A stretch of 64,000 bases of DNA, taken from NCBI GenBank assembly GCA_034434515.1, contig DAOTZA010000139.1, forward strand, positions 1,204 through 65,203. The letters run 5' to 3'. A program made the translations under genes and the position numbers. The notes under the pieces are model-generated. The model saw only the letters and a list, made by a program, of their open reading frames with translations, searched no databases and was not told the DNA's origin. This DNA comes from Anaerolineales bacterium (lineage in GTDB: Bacteria; Chloroflexota; Anaerolineae; Anaerolineales; UBA4823). The first letter of the stretch is position 1. Each line of letters starts with the position of its first letter. Below, piece after piece: positions 7,119 to 52,339 of this stretch.

Positions 7119-8186
7119 TTAAGAAGCCACTGCTGCAGGCACCTTTTGGCGCAAGGCGTAAACGTGAGCTAAAACCTCGGCCATTGCCACATAGAGTTCG
7201 GGAGGAATTTCTTGATCGATGTCAACGGTCTTGTAAAGGGCTCGTGCCAGCGGGATATTTTGAATGACCGGGATATGATTGGCAATGGCAATTTGAACAA
7301 TTCGCTGGGCAATCAAATACGCCCCTTTGGCAACCACTACGGGAGCATTCATGGTTTCAGGGTCATAGCGGATGGCAACGGCAAGGTGGGTAGGGTTGGT
7401 GATAATCACATCGGCTTTGGGAACATTTGCCATCATGATCGAGCGTAGCATTCTACGCATTTGGCCGCGGATGCGGTTCTTGATCATTGGATCGCCTTCG
7501 CTGCGTTTCATTTCTTCCTTTACCTCTTCTTTCGACATCATTAAGGAGCGTCGGTATGTCCACCGTTGATAGGCATAATCAGCAAAAGCAAGGAGAAGAA
7601 AAGCTGCTCCTACCCGTAGAGCCAGTTTTATGGCAATGTCACTCCACACTGCAACCGCGCTGTTGAAGTCTAACTCGGTCAGATGAAGAAGAGGAGAGAT
7701 CTGGTCGCGCAGATAGGCATAGACCACCCAGCCGACCAATACCAGCTTGAGCAGGGCTTTGATCCATTCAACCAGACCTTGGAGCGAAAAGAGCCGTTTG
7801 AAGCCGTTAAGTGGATTGAGGCGACCAAGGTTGAACGCAATCCGTTTGCTCGACCAAAGGAAGTTGGTCTGTGCCAGTGTCACCGAAACCCCCACCATCC
7901 CCAGCGCTAAAATGATGATCAGCAGGTCTTGCCCAACTCGCAACAGGTCGGTAATCATCCGTTGGGAAAACCACTCACCGCTAACCTCACCGCTGGGCAA
8001 GGTGGTCATTGCCTCGACTAAGATAGCCTGAATCTCGGTAATCACCCGCCGCCCAGGTGAGCTGATCAACCATACACCGATCAACAGGGCGGCGGCTGCG
8101 TTCAGCTCCTGGCTCAGGGCTACCATGCCCTCTTTGCGGGCTTCTTGAATCTTACGACCGGTCGGGGGTTCAGTCTTCTCCGGCAT
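7119..8186 (-). CDS. flhB: Flagellar export switch protein FlhB
   Basis: 355 aa. It begins MPEKTEPPTGRKIQEARKEG and contains the NPTH autocleavage site (ITNPTHLAVAI). Confidence 0.95.
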   Translation of the reverse strand: MPEKTEPPTGRKIQEARKEGMVALSQELNAAAALLIGVWLISSPGRRVITEIQAILVEAMTTLPSGEVSGEWFSQRMITDLLRVGQDLLIIILALGMVGVSVTLAQTNFLWSSKRIAFNLGRLNPLNGFKRLFSLQGLVEWIKALLKLVLVGWVVYAYLRDQISPLLHLTELDFNSAVAVWSDIAIKLALRVGAAFLLLAFADYAYQRWTYRRSLMMSKEEVKEEMKRSEGDPMIKNRIRGQMRRMLRSIMMANVPKADVIITNPTHLAVAIRYDPETMNAPVVVAKGAYLIAQRIVQIAIANHIPVIQNIPLARALYKTVDIDQEIPPELYVAMAEVLAHVYALRQKVPAAVAS

Positions 8187-21944: not shown

Positions 21945-22185
21945 GAAAAAAGCTCTCGCCCCTGGGGCGAGAGCTAACGCTCACACGGTTCCACCCAGAT
22001 TGAGCTGATCCGCAGCTCATCTCCTTGCACCGATAACGGGGTGTTCCGTTTCCCTTACTTTGAGCATTGTCGGTTCAGGGTCAGGCTCACGGGTGGTTTT
22101 CGCCCTGGCCTTGTGCAAAGACTTTCAGCCAGTGATCTTTGCTCTCTGGAGCAAGGTGAGCAGGGCTACTCGTCCCGATCTACGC
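21945..22185 (-). promoter_or_regulatory. T-box riboswitch leader with ACC (Thr) specifier, controlling thrS
   Basis: Minus-strand elements, in order:
- A stem I base with ACGAGUAG, the AG-bulge CCAGAGAGC and the distal loop GGCUGAAAG.
- A specifier loop GCGAAAACCACCC, with codon ACC followed by A.
- Stem III GAGCUG-cggau-CAGCUC.
- The T-box sequence AAUCUGGGUGGAACCGUGUGAGCG.
- A terminator AGCUCUCGCCCC-AG-GGGCGAGAGCU followed by UUUUUU (21945-21975). Confidence 0.85.
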
Positions 22186-22194
22186 CATTTTTAG

Positions 22195-22268
22195 TGGGCG
22201 GAACAGGGCTCGAACCTGCGACCTCTGCGATGTCAACGCAGTGCTCTAACCAACTGAGCTATCCGCCC
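22195..22268 (-). tRNA. tRNA-Val (anticodon GAC)
   Basis: The reverse complement GGGCGGATAGCTCAGTTGGTTAGAGCACTGCGTTGACATCGCAGAGGTCGCAGGTTCGAGCCCTGTTCCGCCCA folds as a cloverleaf. The anticodon loop is TTGACAT. No CCA is encoded. Confidence 0.95.
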
Positions 22269-25702: not shown

Positions 25703-26224
25703 GTGGTTGCTAAAGGTCCTCTTCGTCTCAATGCCGGCTTTATTGTTGGTCTTCCAGTAGGTGAGAGCCGTGACTTTGATGTTGACATCTCCCATATTGT
25801 CCTCGAGTCAGACTTAATCTTAGATGAGTTGAGCGGCAGTGTGCGCATCACCCGCACAGCTCAGGGACTGCTGCTCCATGCCATGATGCATGCAACGACC
25901 CCAAGCCAATGCGTGCGTTGTCTCAATGATTTTACCTTACCCCTGGAAGTTGATTTTACGGAATTATACGCTTTCTCCCGCAATGGGATGAGTGAAAGTG
26001 GCTTGCTTTTGCCCGAGGATGCCCAGATTGATCTTTCACCGCTGGTGCGCGAATATATGCTATTAGCCGTTCCAATTCAGCCACTGTGTATGCCAGACTG
26101 CAAAGGGCTTTGTCCGATTTGCGGCGCTAACCAAAATGAAAATGTCTGTAATCATCCTGAAGAAGAGATTGATCCAAGGCTATCTATCCTGAAAACGTGG
26201 TTAGATCACAACGAGATCGAATAG
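25703..26224 (+). CDS. DUF177 (YceD-like) protein
   Basis: 173 aa. It has two Cys pairs (CVRC..., CKGLCPICG) and an acidic C-terminus typical of YceD/DUF177. It uses a GTG start. Confidence 0.8.
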   Translation: MVAKGPLRLNAGFIVGLPVGESRDFDVDISHIVLESDLILDELSGSVRITRTAQGLLLHAMMHATTPSQCVRCLNDFTLPLEVDFTELYAFSRNGMSESGLLLPEDAQIDLSPLVREYMLLAVPIQPLCMPDCKGLCPICGANQNENVCNHPEEEIDPRLSILKTWLDHNEIE

Positions 26225-26263
26225 TTTTCGTCCTTGTTCGCCTGTTTTTATAGTTAAGGAGGG

Positions 26264-27289
26264 ATGCGCATGGTTTTATCAGGGGCAGACATTGTTGAGG
26301 AAATCAATCCTTTTCTTTTAACGTCTTTAAGTGAAATTGAGCTGGCAGAGACGGAAGAGTATGACGAAAATTCGGATCATTTTTCCGATGACACCTTAGA
26401 TATCTATCTTCGTGAAATGGCGGCCGTGCCTCTTCTGAGCCATCAAGAAGAGATCGATCTGGCACGCCGTTTTGAACGCGGCAAACAAGCTCAGCTCGAA
26501 CTTGCCAACACGAAAGGTAGAATCAGCAAAAGAAGATTAGCCGAACTCAAGGCTCTGATCAGCGATGGCCTGGCTGCCCGTGAACATCTGATTAAAGCCA
26601 ATACTCGCCTAGTGATCTCGATTGCGCGACGCTATATCGGCTGCGGTGTGCCATTGAGCGACCTGATCCAGGAGGGTAATTTGGGTCTGATCCGCGCGGT
26701 CGAAAAGTTCGAGTACCAGCGCGGATTTCGTTTTTCAACCTATGCCACCTGGTGGATCCGTCAGGCAGTCATGCGGGCGATTGCCATGCAGAGCCGCACC
26801 ATCCGTTTACCAGTCTATCTTGGCGATCGCGTGCGCCAGTTTCAACAGGTTGCGCATGCGCTCGAACAAGAGTTGGGCAGACCACCCACCTTGCAGGAAT
26901 TAGCCCAGGAGTTGAATGTAACCCCTGAGAAGGTGCACTGGGTCATGCAGATGTCTCAGACACCGCTCTCTCTCGAAGACCCTTACGGAGACGAGGAGGA
27001 TTCGGAATTTGGGGCTTTTGTAGAAGATGAAACGGCGGAGCAACCGTATGATGCTGTGCAACAAATGATGCTTCAGGAGCAAGTGGAACAAGCCCTGGCT
27101 ACCCTTACCCCGCGCGAAGCCCGCGTGCTCCGCTTAAGGTATGGCTTAGGATATCAAAGGCAGTTGACGTTGGAGGAGGTTGGGGATAAATTCGGTTTAA
27201 CCCGCGAACGAATCCGCCAAATTGAACTGCAAGCATTGCGCCGCTTGCGTCATCCCAGTCGAGCGCGTATCTTGCGCGAATATCTCTAG
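26264..27289 (+). CDS. RNA polymerase sigma-70 family factor, RpoD/SigA-like (group 1/2)
   Basis: 341 aa. Region 1.2 reads DTLDIYLREM. Region 2 reads LIKANTRLVISIARRY...DLIQEGNLGLIRAVEKFEYQRGFRFSTYATWWIRQA. Region 3 reads TIRLPVY. Region 4 reads LTPREARVLRLRYGL...TLEEVGDKFGLTRERIRQIE. Confidence 0.9.
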   Translation: MRMVLSGADIVEEINPFLLTSLSEIELAETEEYDENSDHFSDDTLDIYLREMAAVPLLSHQEEIDLARRFERGKQAQLELANTKGRISKRRLAELKALISDGLAAREHLIKANTRLVISIARRYIGCGVPLSDLIQEGNLGLIRAVEKFEYQRGFRFSTYATWWIRQAVMRAIAMQSRTIRLPVYLGDRVRQFQQVAHALEQELGRPPTLQELAQELNVTPEKVHWVMQMSQTPLSLEDPYGDEEDSEFGAFVEDETAEQPYDAVQQMMLQEQVEQALATLTPREARVLRLRYGLGYQRQLTLEEVGDKFGLTRERIRQIELQALRRLRHPSRARILREYL

Positions 27290-27309
27290 CCAACAATGCA
27301 AAGTAGAGG

Positions 27310-27338
27310 TTGACAAAATCTATTTGTGCGGATAAACT
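27310..27338 (+). promoter_or_regulatory. Candidate sigma-70 promoter of the metG leader
   Basis: TTGACA (27310-27315), a 17-nt spacer, then TAAACT (27333-27338). The leader ATG lies 9 nt downstream of the -10 element. Confidence 0.55.
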
Positions 27339-27347
27339 CACCCCGAT

Positions 27348-27455
27348 ATGAATGGTTGGATGATGTCACCAAACCCAATGATGCGCCTTTTGATGGCGGC
27401 AATGCCCAAGTCGCCAAGCAGACGGACAGCCCGGTTGCCTTCCCAATCGGGTTGA
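27348..27455 (+). CDS. Candidate Met-rich leader peptide of metG (35 codons)
   Basis: Translation is MNGWMMSPNPMMRLLMAAMPKSPSRRTARLPSQSG*. AUG occupies codons 1, 5, 6, 11, 12, 16 and 19. There is no SD, so the mRNA would be near-leaderless relative to the predicted promoter. The ORF contains the 5' antiterminator arm. Confidence 0.45.
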   Translation: MNGWMMSPNPMMRLLMAAMPKSPSRRTARLPSQSG

Positions 27456-27476
27456 GATGGAAAACATCGATAGAAT

Positions 27477-27510
27477 GGGCTGTCCAAAAAGGACAGCCTT
27501 TTTAATTTTT
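27477..27510 (+). terminator. Intrinsic terminator inside the metG 5' leader (attenuator)
   Basis: GGGCTGTCC-AAAAA-GGACAGCC followed by TTTTTAATTTTT. It ends 6 nt before the metG SD GGAGGAGG. A second copy of GGACAGCC(C) at 27424-27432 can pair with the 5' arm instead, forming an antiterminator. Confidence 0.8.
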
Positions 27511-27529
27511 GCTCTGGAGGAGGAATGCC

Positions 27530-29314
27530 ATGACTCAAAATATCCTGGTTGCGGTTGCCTGGCCATACGCAAATTCTGAAATTCATGTTGGCAATCTTAC
27601 CGGCTCTTACTTGCCAGCCGACATCTTTGCCCGTTTTCAGCGCCTAAGGGGGAACCGGGTGGCGATGGTTTCGGGGTCGGATTCGCATGGGACGCCGGTG
27701 ACCGTGCGCGCTGATGCTGAAGGCACCACCCCCTATCAGGTTTATCAAAGGTACCATCAAGGCTTTCTCGAATTATTCCAGAAAGCCGGTTTGACCTACG
27801 ATCTGTTCACTAGCACTCATACTACCAATCACTTCAAGGTCTCGCAGGCAATTTTCCTGGCTTTGAATCACAATGGTTACCTCTATACCCAGAGCGAGCA
27901 ACAATGGTTTTCACCCACTCAGAATCGATTTTTGCCCGATCGCTATGTCGAAGGCACCTGTTATCTATGTGGTTATGAAGGCGCTCGGGGAGATCAATGC
28001 GATGGCTGCGGTAATCTCCTCGATGCCACCCAACTGATCAACCCTCGATCAAAGATCGATGGCTCGACGCCCGAATTGCGCGAGACAGCCCATTTTTATC
28101 TCGATCTCGCCGCGTTACAGCCTGAGATCGTGCGCTTTTTGGAAGAACGTCAATCCTATTGGCGGCCAAATGTCTTGCGCCAATCCTTAGGACAAATCCA
28201 GGCCGAAAATTTGCGCGGGCGGCCGATCACCCGTGATCTGGATTGGGGAATCCCGGTGCCAATCGAGGGTTGGGAGGGAAAATGTCTCTATGTCTGGTTT
28301 GAAGCGGTGATCGGTTATCTTTCGGCAACGATCGAGTGGGCACAAATACAGGGGCAAGCAGATGCCTGGCAGGATTGGTGGTTCAACCCTGAAGCGCGGG
28401 CTTATTATTTTATCGGTAAAGACAACATTCCTTTTCATGCCATCATCTGGCCAGGTCAATTAATTGGCTCTGGCGAATGGTTTGGAAAACTCTTTGCCAA
28501 CGTTGGAGGGAAGCGATTGACCTTGCCGTATGATGTGCCGGCCAATGAGTTTATGAATCTGGAAGGCAAGAAGATCTCGGGCAGTCGGAACTGGGCGGTT
28601 TGGGGAAATGATTTCCTTAGCCGCTACGATCCTGACCCGTTGCGCTATTACCTCACCGCCAACATGCCTGAAACGCGCGATACCGATTGGGATTGGCAAG
28701 ATTTCTATCAGCGCAACAATAGTGAGTTGGTGGCGACTTGGGGTAATCTTGCCAATCGAGTGTTGTCCTTTGCTTTCAAACATTGGGACGGGCACGTTCC
28801 CGATGCGGGAGAATTACGCGCCGTTGATCAGGAATTGTTGGAAAAAGTTCGCCAGGGTTTCCAAACCGTTAGCGAACATCTGGAAGCTGTGCGCCTGCGA
28901 GCAGCCCTTTTGGAAACAATGAACCTTGCCAGCGAGGTGAATAAATACCTGGATTTGACCGGTCCATGGTTTGAGATCAAGACCGACAAAGATGCTGCTG
29001 CCAAGTCGATCTTCACTGCCTTGCGCGCAATCGATACGTTGAAAGTCCTTTTTGCTCCGTTTCTGCCGTTTAGTACGGAGAAAATCCATCGCTATCTTGG
29101 CTATTACCAACCATTCTTTGGCGAACAAAAAACTGAGCTGCTCACCGATGAATTGGGCGAACATCGGGTCTTGCTCTATGATGGTTCACGGGCAAGTGGA
29201 GAATGGAAGCTCAGTGAATTGCCGCCTGGTCAAGCGCTTACCCAGCCTGCGCCGCTGTTCAAAAAATTAGAAGAAAAAATTGTCGCCGAGGAGCGGGCTC
29301 GCCTGGGAGCTTGA
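27530..29314 (+). CDS. metG: Methionyl-tRNA synthetase
   Basis: The start is set at ATG 27530, 6 nt after the SD GGAGGAGG; the ORF-track start at 27509 lies inside the terminator T-tract. It has the HIGH-type motif SEIHVGN, the zinc knuckle CYLCGYEGARGDQCDGCG and the KMSKS-type motif GKKISGSR. Confidence 0.95.
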   Translation: MTQNILVAVAWPYANSEIHVGNLTGSYLPADIFARFQRLRGNRVAMVSGSDSHGTPVTVRADAEGTTPYQVYQRYHQGFLELFQKAGLTYDLFTSTHTTNHFKVSQAIFLALNHNGYLYTQSEQQWFSPTQNRFLPDRYVEGTCYLCGYEGARGDQCDGCGNLLDATQLINPRSKIDGSTPELRETAHFYLDLAALQPEIVRFLEERQSYWRPNVLRQSLGQIQAENLRGRPITRDLDWGIPVPIEGWEGKCLYVWFEAVIGYLSATIEWAQIQGQADAWQDWWFNPEARAYYFIGKDNIPFHAIIWPGQLIGSGEWFGKLFANVGGKRLTLPYDVPANEFMNLEGKKISGSRNWAVWGNDFLSRYDPDPLRYYLTANMPETRDTDWDWQDFYQRNNSELVATWGNLANRVLSFAFKHWDGHVPDAGELRAVDQELLEKVRQGFQTVSEHLEAVRLRAALLETMNLASEVNKYLDLTGPWFEIKTDKDAAAKSIFTALRAIDTLKVLFAPFLPFSTEKIHRYLGYYQPFFGEQKTELLTDELGEHRVLLYDGSRASGEWKLSELPPGQALTQPAPLFKKLEEKIVAEERARLGA

Positions 29315-29319
29315 GTGAG

Positions 29320-30069
29320 TCAAGCCTGATGCAGGCTTTCCCTAGGCGAACGGAGATACCAGCATCCGTCCGCTTTAACCATCACCTCATAAACTTTTCC
29401 CTGATAGCTTAGGGTCAAAAAGTGACTGCCCGAAGCATCTTGCCAGCGGCGTCCAATCGATTCAATGGGAATCCAATTCTCTTGCCAGTAGATGGCGCGG
29501 ATGCGCAGGGAAGCAAAGTCTGTACCGCTGAACTCAACCGCAATGGGTTGGGTCGCTCTGAGACGGCGTTGCAGGGCTGGCTGGTTCCCGTGGTGGGCAA
29601 TCCGCTCAGCCAGCCACCAGAGGGCAGCTTCTGCGCTTTGCTGTTTGATTTGTTCCCGTGTGCCAAAAAAACGATAGAGGTGAGCATGGATTTGATCGAG
29701 GACTGCCAGCCCAATCCACACTGTGCCAACCGGCTTTTGAGGCGAACCACCGCCTGGTCCGGCGATGCCGCTGACGGAGATGGCCGTCTGGACCTGAAAG
29801 AGATGCTTAACCCCCTGAGCCATTTCTTTCACCGTTTGTTCGCTAACCGCTCCGAAGCGATCTAGCGTATCCTGGCTTACCCCAAGCAGATGTTGCTTGG
29901 CTGCGTTTGAATAGGCGACGACGCCGCCCAGGTAAACTTCAGAAGCGCCGGCTACATTGGTTATGCGATGACTGATCAACCCCCCTGTGCACGATTCGGC
30001 AAGGGCAAGTGTCCAACCCAGAGCAGTGAGTTGTTCGGTAAGCACAAATTCGATCGGATGAGTGTCCAT
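29320..30069 (-). CDS. CinA C-terminal (PncC-like nicotinamide-nucleotide amidase) domain protein with an extra ~85-aa C-terminal domain
   Basis: 249 aa. Residues 1-160 match the CinA-C domain (LALAESCTGGLISHRITNVAGASEVYLGGVVAYSN...SGIAGPGGG). Residues ~165-249 are an unassigned, beta-rich extension. Confidence 0.8.
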   Translation of the reverse strand: MDTHPIEFVLTEQLTALGWTLALAESCTGGLISHRITNVAGASEVYLGGVVAYSNAAKQHLLGVSQDTLDRFGAVSEQTVKEMAQGVKHLFQVQTAISVSGIAGPGGGSPQKPVGTVWIGLAVLDQIHAHLYRFFGTREQIKQQSAEAALWWLAERIAHHGNQPALQRRLRATQPIAVEFSGTDFASLRIRAIYWQENWIPIESIGRRWQDASGSHFLTLSYQGKVYEVMVKADGCWYLRSPRESLHQA

Positions 30070-30136
30070 GGCAGGAATTATACTTGCGATTCCAGAATGC
30101 TTGCTGGATAGAACTCTTGGTAAAATTTAGCTGAAG

Positions 30137-32011
30137 ATGGAGAAGAATAGCGGACTTCCAGATAGTATTGTGGCATTGCTGCCAAATTTGCCTGCTCGCC
30201 CTGGTTGTTACCTAATGAAGGATGGCGAGGGGAAGGTCATTTATGTCGGCAAAGCGGTGAATCTCCGCAATCGGGTGCGTTCATACTTCCACGCTCCTCA
30301 ACAACTCAATCCACGCATCCGCCGCATGGTGGAGAAAATTGCCGACATCGAGTGGATTATCGTCGATTCAGAACTCGAGGCGCTGATCCTCGAGATGAAT
30401 TTGATCAAGAAGTATCGCCCGCATTACAATGTGCGTCTTAAGGATGATAAGCGGTATCCTTATATCAAAGTGCATTGGGCGGATGATTTTCCGAAAGTTA
30501 CCGTTACTCGCCAGATGATCCAGGATGGGTCACGCTATTTTGGCCCTTATACCAGTGTTTGGGCGGTTCACCAAACCCTGGATTTGCTGCGACGTATTTT
30601 TCCTTACCTGACCTGCGATCGGGTGATCACCGGCAAGGATGAACGCGCGTGCTTGTATTACGATATTAAGTTGTGTCGCGCGCCATGTATCGGAGCAATT
30701 GATCGAGAGAGCTATCGCCAGATGATCGCCGATCTATGTCATTTTTTAGAAGGACATACCGAAGAAATTGTCGCTCGGCTCAGGGTTAAAATGGAAAAAG
30801 CCGCCGAGAACTTGCAGTTTGAACAGGCAGCGGTGATCCGCGATCAAATCCGCGCCATTGAGAACGTGGTCGAAAAGCAAAAGGTGATCTCAAGTGAGAT
30901 GACCGACTCGGATGTGATTGCCCTCGCCCGTGATAATGGCGATGCCTGCGTGCAGATCTTCTTCATCCGCAGCGGTAAATTAATCGGCCGCGAATATTTT
31001 TTGTTAGAGGGCGCGGAAGAAACACCCGATGCAACTGTGATGGCTGAATTTATCAAACATTTTTACGATCGGGCAGCATCTGTTCCGGATCAAGTGTTAT
31101 TGCCCGAGGAAGTCGAAGAAGCCCAAATTATCCGCCAATGGTTAAGTCAAAAGAAGGGTTCTCAAAAGGTGGAAATTAGCGTGCCACGGATCGGCATCCA
31201 GCAAGCGTTGATCCAGATGGCAGCCGAAAACGCAGCTCAGACTTTAGCTACTTTGAAAGCGCAATGGGAGGTGGACACTCATCGGCAAGAGCAAGCCTTG
31301 CTGGAACTGCAAGAGTCTTTGGGCATCGAAAAGCCGCTCAACCGAATTGAATGCTACGATATTTCCAATACCCAGGGCGTGGCTGCGATTGGTAGCATGG
31401 TGGTGTTTGAAAAAGGAACGCCGCGCAAAAGCTATTATCGCCGCTTTAACATCCGCTCGGTTAGCGGGCAAGATGACTTTGCCAGCCTAGAAGAAACGCT
31501 CGAACGTCGCTTTCGGCGCTGGCAAGCAGCCCAAGAGCAGGAAGACAGCCCGGGCAAGAAACCTGACGCCGCTTTTGCCATTTTGCCCGATCTGATAATT
31601 GTTGATGGCGGCAAAGGACAACTGAGCCGGGCGGTCAAAGTGTTAGAACGTTTTGGTTTATTTGAGCGGGTCAGTGTGATTAGTTTGGCAAAGCAGCAGG
31701 AAGAAGTCTTTTTACCCCACCGCTCGGAGAGTATCTTGTTGCCGAGGCATTCGCAAGGCTTTTATCTGTTGCAACGTATCCGTGATGAAGCGCACCGTTT
31801 CGCCATCACTGCTCATCGCAAATTGCGCACCAAACAGGGGCTGGCTTCGCGTCTGGAACTAATTCCTGGCATTGGCCCGGTCAAACGCAAACGTCTATTG
31901 CAGCATTTCGGTGACGTGGATGCCATTCGCAACGCCAGCCTGGAAGAGCTGACTGCGGTCGAAGGCATTACCCCACACTTAGCGCTCCAGATTAAATCTA
32001 CTCTAGAATGA
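30137..32011 (+). CDS. uvrC: Excinuclease ABC subunit C
   Basis: 624 aa. It has the GIY-YIG motif (GCYLMKDGEGKVIYVGKA...NLRNRVRSY), a UVR domain, the endonuclease domain and a C-terminal (HhH)2 motif. Confidence 0.97.
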   Translation: MEKNSGLPDSIVALLPNLPARPGCYLMKDGEGKVIYVGKAVNLRNRVRSYFHAPQQLNPRIRRMVEKIADIEWIIVDSELEALILEMNLIKKYRPHYNVRLKDDKRYPYIKVHWADDFPKVTVTRQMIQDGSRYFGPYTSVWAVHQTLDLLRRIFPYLTCDRVITGKDERACLYYDIKLCRAPCIGAIDRESYRQMIADLCHFLEGHTEEIVARLRVKMEKAAENLQFEQAAVIRDQIRAIENVVEKQKVISSEMTDSDVIALARDNGDACVQIFFIRSGKLIGREYFLLEGAEETPDATVMAEFIKHFYDRAASVPDQVLLPEEVEEAQIIRQWLSQKKGSQKVEISVPRIGIQQALIQMAAENAAQTLATLKAQWEVDTHRQEQALLELQESLGIEKPLNRIECYDISNTQGVAAIGSMVVFEKGTPRKSYYRRFNIRSVSGQDDFASLEETLERRFRRWQAAQEQEDSPGKKPDAAFAILPDLIIVDGGKGQLSRAVKVLERFGLFERVSVISLAKQQEEVFLPHRSESILLPRHSQGFYLLQRIRDEAHRFAITAHRKLRTKQGLASRLELIPGIGPVKRKRLLQHFGDVDAIRNASLEELTAVEGITPHLALQIKSTLE

Positions 32012-52084: not shown

Positions 52085-52157
52085 GCCGAGATAGCTCAGT
52101 TGGTAGAGCACATGACTGAAAATCATGGTGTCGCCAGTTCGATTCTGGCTCTCGGCA
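52085..52157 (+). tRNA. tRNA-Phe (anticodon GAA)
   Basis: GCCGAGATAGCTCAGTTGGTAGAGCACATGACTGAAAATCATGGTGTCGCCAGTTCGATTCTGGCTCTCGGCA forms a cloverleaf with anticodon loop CTGAAAA. Confidence 0.95.
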
Positions 52158-52181
52158 TTCTCGGCCTTGGCGGTCGAAGCT

Positions 52182-52254
<73 letters not shown>

Positions 52255-52268
52255 CTTTTTATCCAAGT

Positions 52269-52339
52269 GGCGACGTGGCCAAGTGGTAAGGCAAGGGTCT
52301 GCAAAACCCTGATCACGGGTTCAAATCCCGTCGTCGCCT
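52269..52339 (+). tRNA. tRNA-Cys (anticodon GCA)
   Basis: GGCGACGTGGCCAAGTGGTAAGGCAAGGGTCTGCAAAACCCTGATCACGGGTTCAAATCCCGTCGTCGCCT forms a cloverleaf with anticodon loop CTGCAAA. Confidence 0.95.

Follow-up and report, generated by a model that had tools for sequence, protein, structure and literature searches.

Leader-peptide attenuation of pheST and of amino-acid biosynthesis operons is established (Vitreschak 2004, as cited in PMC1262725). In E. coli pheST (pheM) and in the trp, his, thr, leu and ilv systems of Proteobacteria, a short open reading frame (ORF) rich in cognate codons is combined with a terminator before the gene and a mutually exclusive antiterminator. Here we describe the same combination upstream of metG, the gene for methionine--tRNA ligase (MetRS), in a 64,000-nucleotide stretch of DNA from an Anaerolineales bacterium of the phylum Chloroflexota (assembly GCA_034434515.1, contig DAOTZA010000139.1), which we refer to as the 64-kb window. 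The metG leader carries a Met-codon-rich ORF inside a terminator/antiterminator switch, and its conservation across dozens of Anaerolineae species, which is the decisive support, makes it very probable that this leader acts as a ribosome-mediated (leader-peptide) transcription attenuator and adjusts metG expression to the supply of charged tRNA-Met. Because the metG product charges the sensed tRNA, the loop would be autoregulatory, as it is in pheST, where the target is likewise the synthetase that charges the sensed tRNA.

The first-pass annotation of this DNA had named pheST as the established case of a synthetase under leader-peptide control. That case stands, and it has company. Leader-peptide control has been predicted for Streptomyces trpS and leuS (PMC1262725), and a leader-peptide attenuator for the hisS paralogues and hisZ of Bacilli (PMC2965389); leaderless leader peptides were predicted for cysS and 13 others in Deinococcus deserti (PMC4007540); and leaders were predicted for alaS, thrS, leuS and trpS in Streptomyces lividans, in which a leaderless 'metL' upstream of metNIQ was proposed to be methionine-dependent (PMC8079986). 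The leaderless leaders of Actinobacteria and Deinococcus resemble the metG leader in having a short cognate-rich ORF and a hairpin, sometimes with a U-tract, before the synthetase gene, and they have the 5'-terminal AUG that is predicted for the metG leader (PMC8079986, PMC1262725, PMC4007540). The metL ORF has two internal Met codons, a transporter downstream and no clear terminator (PMC8079986), whereas metG leaders have 4-6 AUG in 10 codons and a strong conserved terminator and antiterminator in tens of species. The hisS/hisZ leader of Bacilli is likewise a synthetase attenuator in a T-box-using lineage, but it concerns a different amino acid, gene and phylum and has no sequence relation to the metG leader (PMC2965389). 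In mycobacteria, stalling on leaderless polycysteine small ORFs (sORFs; the 'Cys ribulon') remodels the downstream RNA and causes attenuation at the level of translation (bioRxiv 10.1101/834739). Like the sORFs of the Cys ribulon, the metG ORF has a single codon repeated in a run and would be both sensory and leaderless; the metG leader differs in its intrinsic terminator, its amino acid, methionine, and its synthetase target.

In Firmicutes, the Met T-boxes of metS and metG sense tRNA directly, via a specifier codon and the T-box sequence. They share with the attenuator proposed here the gene, the signal (uncharged versus charged tRNA-Met) and the terminator/antiterminator output, but the metG leader of the window has no T-box match, and sensing would go through the translating ribosome instead of direct tRNA binding. 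Relative to pheST and the trp-type systems, the leader would sense methionine, whose codon is also the start codon, and it belongs to Chloroflexota; it matches no Rfam leader family; in many species its ORF start appears leaderless and not led by a Shine-Dalgarno sequence; and its stop codon lies downstream of the antiterminator arm, not upstream of region 2, with 1:2 pairing unsupported. Approximately 5% of genes in some Chloroflexi are predicted to be leaderless (PMC3160421). In the full-text literature, table S9 of PMC4007540 and Lopatovskaya et al., 2010 (Mol Biol 44:128) excepted, we found no leader peptide for metG or MetRS. The metG leader is best placed in the leader-peptide attenuator class, where its amino acid, its regulated gene and its phylum are new and its mechanism is a familiar one; in many species its ORF is also predicted to be leaderless.

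A Met-codon-rich ORF and alternative RNA structures precede metG

The leader ORF of the window encodes MNGWMMSPNPMMRLLMAAMPKSPSRRTARLPSQSG and has AUG codons at 27348, 27360, 27363, 27378, 27381, 27393 and 27402, with seven Met among its first 19 codons; translation bore out the earlier description of this Met-rich frame opened by the ATG at 27348. This ATG lies 9 nt past the -10 hexamer of a promoter (TTGACA at 27310-27315, a 17-nt spacer and TAAACT at 27333-27338) that is present exactly where the first-pass annotation had put it and that was the top promoter-like site within 26000-30500 in a promoter scan. Transcription is predicted to begin about where this ATG stands, and no Shine-Dalgarno sequence precedes it; the ORF would thus be leaderless or nearly so, a 5' untranslated region (UTR) of 2-3 nt being likely.

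Downstream of the ORF lies an intrinsic terminator made up of GGGCTGTCC (27477-27485), AAAAA, GGACAGCC(T) (27491-27499) and then TTTTAATTTTT to 27510. With its 9-bp stem it is the strongest terminator-like site in 26000-30500, and the scan agrees with the strong terminator reported earlier. The gap between the end of the T-tract and the metG Shine-Dalgarno sequence GGAGGAGG measures 5 nt, not the 6 nt given before. Neither reading of the sequence nor a scan of the region revealed a promoter for metG alone 3' of the terminator, and transcription of metG therefore has to pass it.

The 3' part of the ORF contains a second copy of the terminator 3' arm, GGACAGCCC at 27424-27432. As the first-pass annotation had proposed, this repeat can pair with 27477-27485: the full antiterminator 5' arm, hereafter arm A, forms a duplex of -20 kcal/mol with 27476-27485 (z = -4.5), and arm A is invariant in the window clade. 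The octamer GGCTGTCC occurs three times in the 64-kb window, every time within the metG leader.

RNAfold of 27345-27512, a check that had been suggested, gave -59 kcal/mol (z = -3.4) and predicted two hairpins, P1 and P2, a small hairpin and the terminator. Met codons 16 and 19 fall within the 5' arm of P1, and at its 3' end this hairpin runs 2 nt into arm A. P2 sequesters arm A and spans the leader TGA stop at 27453-27455. A third helix over this stop had been noted at 27428-27437/27444-27453; the predicted fold contains it with slightly wider limits (27427-27437/27444-27454) and also gives it a role that had not been assigned, as P2 competes with the antiterminator in the models and is the candidate anti-antiterminator of the window clade, an element that differs from lineage to lineage. 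Both P1 and P2 are conserved in the related loci L001-L003.

The Met run is enriched upstream of metG in related species

A MetG protein search yielded 80 species-representative loci with 61-94% MetG identity, and their upstream regions served as the sample for codon enrichment. All 80 are from Chloroflexota, nearly all of them labelled Anaerolineae, Anaerolineales or Anaerolineaceae, with one Ca. Aquidulcis of the class Limnocylindria. In most of these loci a short ORF rich in Met codons lies at a distance of 80-300 nt upstream of metG; the encoded peptides include MKTCPKSQNLMMCMWMAAMPK..., MAMMCTMAMFMRA, MNSRSSLSLMRMMMAMAMSRRAWAAAREA and MKTRTYFPHMQVAMPMMRVMMCRAS... At least four in-frame ATG within a stop-free 10-codon window were found in 31/80 regions, compared to 0.4% of dinucleotide shuffles and 0/80 regions on the reverse strand; at least three were found in 51/80 regions, compared to 6% of shuffles and 9/80 on the reverse strand. 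The first-pass annotation had asked whether the Met-codon run is conserved upstream of metG in related genomes, and in these regions it recurs. Among the 61 sense codons, ATG showed by far the strongest enrichment (mean maximum 3.04; next codons, 2.08). Beyond the run, the leader peptides are unrelated, save for the residues encoded by arm A (R/W-T/A-A), and they range in length from 13 to ~60 aa.

The start of the ORF is conserved together with the promoter. TTGACA-17-TA[ACG]ACT is found in 37 regions, and in 34 of these the Met run shares an uninterrupted frame with the first ATG to follow the -10 hexamer. The ORF starts 7-11 nt past this hexamer in 18 regions, among them the window and L001-L003, a spacing that predicts a 5' UTR of 0-3 nt and hence leaderless ORFs; in 13 others it starts 24-34 nt past the hexamer, most with AAGG, GGAAGG or AGGAA a few bases upstream. 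A Brevefilum-like group has TTGAAA-17-TATAAT instead, with an ATG 8-9 nt after it.

The terminator is linked to the run: it accompanies the Met run in 41/51 regions, compared to 6/30 regions without a run (Fisher p = 1e-7). One close relative is informative in this respect. In L004 (88% MetG identity; L004:2760-3003), the promoter and both GGACAGCC/GGGCTGTCC stems are kept, while ACG replaces the start ATG of the leader, the Met codons are gone and the T-tract is degenerate. This locus looks like a decayed attenuator in which ORF and terminator have degenerated together.

An alternative pairing between ORF and terminator is conserved

The sequence elements of the leader, their conservation and their geometry can be read directly from the related loci. 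The terminator stem, GGCTGTCC followed after 3-9 nt by GGRCRGCC, is present in 25 loci, once each and always just upstream of metG; terminators do not usually show such conservation of stem sequence. Inside the ORF, the 27 loci of the main subfamily have a copy of the terminator 3' arm (arm A, GGRCAGCC, 8-9 nt). The complementarity of arm A to the terminator 5' arm is significant in 25/41 loci (p <= 0.05 versus shuffles). In a 27-species alignment the terminator helix is 100% paired, and the helix of arm A with the terminator 5' arm (the A:C helix) is 89% paired, compared to 25-44% with the partner slid, a percentage that is biased upward by the choice of arm A as the best complement in this alignment (A2). 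One pair of the A:C helix is AU in 11 species, GU in 11 and GC in 5, and another shows a CG-to-UA exchange, so that the search for an alternative pairing in relatives, also suggested earlier, has found one with pair exchanges.

The geometry of the ORF relative to this pairing is similarly constrained. In the main subfamily, arm A mostly starts 12-30 nt after the last Met codon (commonest 15 or 21), 32-48 nt, roughly the length of a ribosome footprint, separate arm A from the terminator 5' arm, and the stop of the Met frame lies 0-22 nt beyond arm A in 26/27 loci, as opposed to 4/27 and 5/27 for the other two frames. The distance from arm A to the leader stop is 20 nt in the window and 12 nt or less in many relatives. 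Since the start position is fixed and the stop is constrained in that frame alone, the Met frame behaves, as far as the alignments tell, like a translated ORF; these are properties of such an ORF and not of a protein- or tRNA-binding RNA.

Taken together, the comparative data from dozens of Anaerolineae support the core claim of the first-pass annotation, that a Met-codon leader ORF within a terminator/antiterminator switch controls metG.

Two divergent subgroups, the first composed of L057/L059/L063/L070 and the second Brevefilum-like (L030/L032/L038/L046/L077), keep a Met-run ORF predicted to be leaderless (e.g. MNAIVMMMPRLRMQFNAR) and a terminator with different stems (CTGCTGGC...GCCGGCAG or GCTGGC...GCCAGC); in the first subgroup these features were seen in the stretch ~140-50 nt upstream of metG. 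In both, the stop codon falls within the 3' arm of a conserved hairpin, and the loop of this hairpin displays GCCAG or CCAG, which is complementary to the terminator 5' arm; this loop may be a loop-mediated antiterminator. In L051, L052, L064 and L073, inspection by eye found CCGCG...CGCGG flanking arm A, which could close a small stem, and a ribosome stalling on the last Met codon would reach the CCGCG half; the flanking stem may be a miniature anti-antiterminator.

A metagenome scan was also performed for CAGCC and GGCTGYCC separated by 28-55 nt, with GGRCRGCC following after a further 3-9 nt. Among the matches listed, 109/120 had no T-tract and at least two were further metG loci (L086, L199); on other target genes the scan is uninformative.

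Ribosome position and the predicted response of the switch

Equilibrium folding of the leader with the full terminator always yields the terminator and cannot discriminate between models. We therefore used a truncated transcript, in which the terminator 3' arm is absent, together with modelled ribosome positions. In the window, without a ribosome, the combination of P1 and P2 and the antiterminator each have a probability of ~0.5, with the P2 state 0.5 kcal/mol more stable than the antiterminator and a barrier of 9 kcal/mol between them; across the 27 loci the antiterminator is the usual default fold. With the A site of the ribosome on Met codon 11, 12, 16 or 19 of the window ORF, P1 is disrupted and the antiterminator reaches a probability of 0.9-0.99, being ~2.5 kcal/mol more stable than the P2 state with a refolding barrier of ~6 kcal/mol. 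A ribosome on arm A brings the probability of the antiterminator to 0 in the window and always abolishes it across the 27 loci. For stop codons no more than 12 nt beyond arm A, the footprint of a ribosome that terminates there includes the arm, and the probability is again 0.

From these elements we infer a course of events that runs from the transcription start and translation of the ORF, through stalling and the order of folding, to the direction of the response. Transcription would start ~7 nt after TAAACT, at or 2-3 nt before the AUG at 27348, and translation would be leaderless or near-leaderless. When Met-tRNA(Met) is scarce, with methionine or MetRS limiting, the ribosome would stall on the AUG run (27378-27404), melting P1 and leaving arm A (27424-33) exposed. 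Arm A would capture the terminator 5' arm (27476-85) once it is transcribed, in the window clade after displacing P2, and with the terminator blocked RNA polymerase would proceed into metG. When Met-tRNA is plentiful, the ribosome would cross arm A, reach the stop codon at 27453 and fill the spacer between the antiterminator arms; after its release P2 would re-form, the terminator (27477-27510) would form and transcription would end 20 nt before metG.

The first-pass annotation had put forward a ribosome model of this kind. Its first half, in which a stall on the AUG run frees the arm, agrees with the high antiterminator probabilities above; its second half, a steric block by a ribosome at the stop codon, is plausible in that this ribosome would fill the spacer between the antiterminator arms, but in the window arm A itself lies outside the footprint. 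It had further likened the locus to trp, his and pheST, and of this architecture the ORF, the cognate codons, the terminator and the antiterminator were all found, while the upstream 1:2 pairing was not significant.

Points that weigh against the attenuator, and a possible second input

Apart from the bias in the pairing percentage, several observations weigh against the attenuator as we describe it. In the window, a ribosome of standard footprint at the stop codon (27438-27465) misses arm A, a situation in which the antiterminator prevails in equilibrium models; termination when Met is plentiful would therefore depend on steric hindrance or on P2 re-forming. In the window clade P2 consists of arm A and a segment downstream of it, so that it would already be in place when the terminator 5' arm is transcribed, whether or not the ribosome is stalled, and the antiterminator must invade it while being only ~2.5 kcal/mol more stable. 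A trp-like region 1 upstream of the Met run that pairs with arm A was not significant versus shuffles: such a pairing is seen in some minimum free energy (MFE) folds (L051, L052, L064, L073, L015, L011), but systematically it is no better than shuffles. No convincing antiterminator was found in the two divergent subgroups. Finally, a severe shortage of MetRS would cut leader translation as well, because MetRS also charges the initiator tRNA.

This last point has another side. Leaderless initiation needs fMet-tRNA(fMet), the AUG run is read by elongator Met-tRNA(Met), and the antiterminator is the default fold in most relatives; on these grounds we raise, tentatively and as an unlikely refinement of the attenuator, a dual-input sensor, one device reporting the charging of both methionine tRNAs. 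If this doubtful proposal were right, failed initiation and a stall in elongation would both lead to read-through, and there would be no 'superattenuation' state of the trp type. It would then report on both methionine tRNAs in a phylum where ribosome-mediated attenuation is not known to have been studied.

Alternative explanations for the conserved leader

We see only a small chance of a translation-coupled switch of the opposite sign, in which a ribosome at the stop would melt P2, free arm A and give read-through, whereas a stall would leave P2 and the terminator to form. Such a switch is suggested by the placement of P2 in the window clade, downstream of arm A and over the stop codon, by stop-spanning hairpins that recur in three subgroups and by the antiterminator probability, which is 1.0 with a ribosome at the stop when the stop is at least 15 nt from the arm. 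It would, however, lower MetRS synthesis just when Met-tRNA is short, a positive-feedback failure, and in many relatives the stop is close enough (<=12 nt) to arm A for the terminating ribosome to cover it. A ribosome that stalls on the last Met codon also always stops just short of the arm, which fits the classical sign, and it seems sterically unlikely that the two arms would pair around a ribosome filling the 32-48 nt spacer.

A slighter chance still falls to an untranslated RNA element whose AUGs or stems would be bound directly by tRNA-Met in the manner of a T-box, by MetRS or by another factor. The AUG is complementary to the CAU anticodon, the stem sequences are unusually conserved, and thrS in the same genome (20081-21871, minus strand) has a T-box at 21960-22191 (minus strand; 102 bits, Rfam), which upholds the clear thrS T-box of the first-pass annotation. 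For metG the same annotation had found no T-box sequence, and cmscan of 27200-27650 agrees, with no Rfam T-box at E <= 10. Against Rfam leader families and SAM and other riboswitches, this region gave only sub-threshold chance matches (MicX, OxyS; E >= 0.6), and upstream of metG in 35 related loci there was no Rfam match, the sole hit there being an unrelated tRNA in L007. On these searches, a T-box, riboswitch or known leader family was rejected as the identity of the leader. An untranslated element would also have to account for AUGs that share one stop-free frame with freely varying codons in between, for a frame that opens at an AUG fixed at the position of the transcription start or behind a Shine-Dalgarno-like motif, and for the positioning, relative to arm A, of the Met-frame stop only.

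It is barely credible that a functional Met-rich small protein is the product of the ORF and that the hairpin does no more than terminate the transcript of this ORF or of rpoD. Conservation of the ORF and of its start signal, and the lack of a separate rpoD terminator, speak for this reading. On the other side, conservation of the peptide is limited to the Met run and the arm A-encoded residues, its length varies from 13 to ~60 aa, the leader peptides match no Pfam or NCBIfam family, no separate metG promoter follows the terminator, and the complementarity behind the antiterminator is left unexplained. A chance ORF beside an ordinary terminator, without regulation, deserves next to no weight: runs of at least four ATG in a stop-free 10-codon window occur at only four places on both strands of the 64-kb window, by which measure the run of the window is not extraordinarily rare alone, yet this explanation is effectively refuted by the enrichment in 31-51/80 species versus 0.4-6% of shuffles, by the conserved start and by the linked geometry of start, stop, arm and terminator; the joint loss of start codon, Met codons and T-tract in L004 speaks against it as well.

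Implications of the metG leader

If the leader is the attenuator that we propose, methionine and MetRS would join the short list of signals sensed by leader-peptide attenuation, and the mechanism would extend to Chloroflexota. As T-boxes are also used in Chloroflexota genomes, two sensors of tRNA charge would coexist there, a further case of sensor swapping before one gene. The identity of the regulatory codon with the start codon, together with the many leaderless ORFs, would make these leaders a natural test case for the combination of initiation and elongation inputs, and the leader could potentially serve as a reporter of Met-tRNA charging. In combination, the promoter, the AUG run, the GGRCAGCC arm and the terminator provide a rule by which this conserved but unannotated sORF, with its RNA switch, could be annotated in many metagenome-assembled genomes (MAGs) of Anaerolineae.

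The metG locus and its surroundings

Table 1. Features of the metG locus in the window, with the basis of each assignment.
Feature	Position	Strand	Basis
Upstream gene, RpoD-type sigma-70 factor	26264..27289	+	NCBIfam RpoD models, E = 1e-116
Promoter TTGACA-17-TAAACT	27310..27338	+	10/12 consensus positions matched; conserved in 37 related regions
Leader ORF, 35 codons and TGA, MNGWMMSPNPMMRLLMAAMPKSPSRRTARLPSQSG	27348..27455	+	Translation
Hairpin P1	27386..27425	+	MFE fold; conserved in L001-L003
Antiterminator 5' arm (arm A) GGACAGCCCG	27424..27433	+	Pairs with 27476-27485; duplicate of terminator 3' arm
Hairpin P2 (27427-27437 with 27444-27454)	27427..27454	+	MFE fold; changes in L001-L003 preserve pairing
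Small 4-bp hairpin in the spacer between arm A and terminator	27456..27468	+	MFE fold only; sequence not conserved
Intrinsic terminator GGGCTGTCC, AAAAA, GGACAGCCT, T-tract	27477..27510	+	Terminator scan; 100% paired across 27 species
metG Shine-Dalgarno sequence GGAGGAGG	27516..27523	+	Sequence reading; conserved in window-clade alignment
metG, methionine--tRNA ligase, proposed regulated gene	27530..29314	+	TIGR00398, 485.7 bits (cut-off 336)

In the window, metG is monocistronic, the next gene in the ORF list being on the opposite strand. A terminator scan found no terminator between the stop of rpoD (27289) and the leader promoter (27310), the first one being the leader's own. The attenuator hairpin thus probably doubles as the rpoD terminator, and read-through transcripts from rpoD, which are not leaderless, should terminate at it. 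Sigma-factor C-termini lie upstream of metG in several relatives, and rpoD-metG synteny is widespread among them (L030, L038, L041, L060, L069, L074, L075, L077).

Elsewhere in the window, the other three places with at least four ATG in a 10-codon window are all on the minus strand, at 7460 (MRRMLRSIMM), 10801 (MGMMMLPPSL) and 34823 (MMVMTKMSVP). Two further candidates for cognate-codon leaders, a Trp-rich stretch at ~15426 and a His-rich stretch at ~61671 (both on the minus strand), lie inside long ORFs and were set aside as chance. The thrS T-box leader starts 2-3 nt after the tRNA-Val(GAC) gene (22194-22268) on the same strand (minus); because the two adjoin in this way, the T-box may be co-transcribed with, or processed from, the tRNA precursor. 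A trio of tRNA genes, Phe(GAA), Gly(GCC) and Cys(GCA), is located at 52085-52339 on the plus strand.

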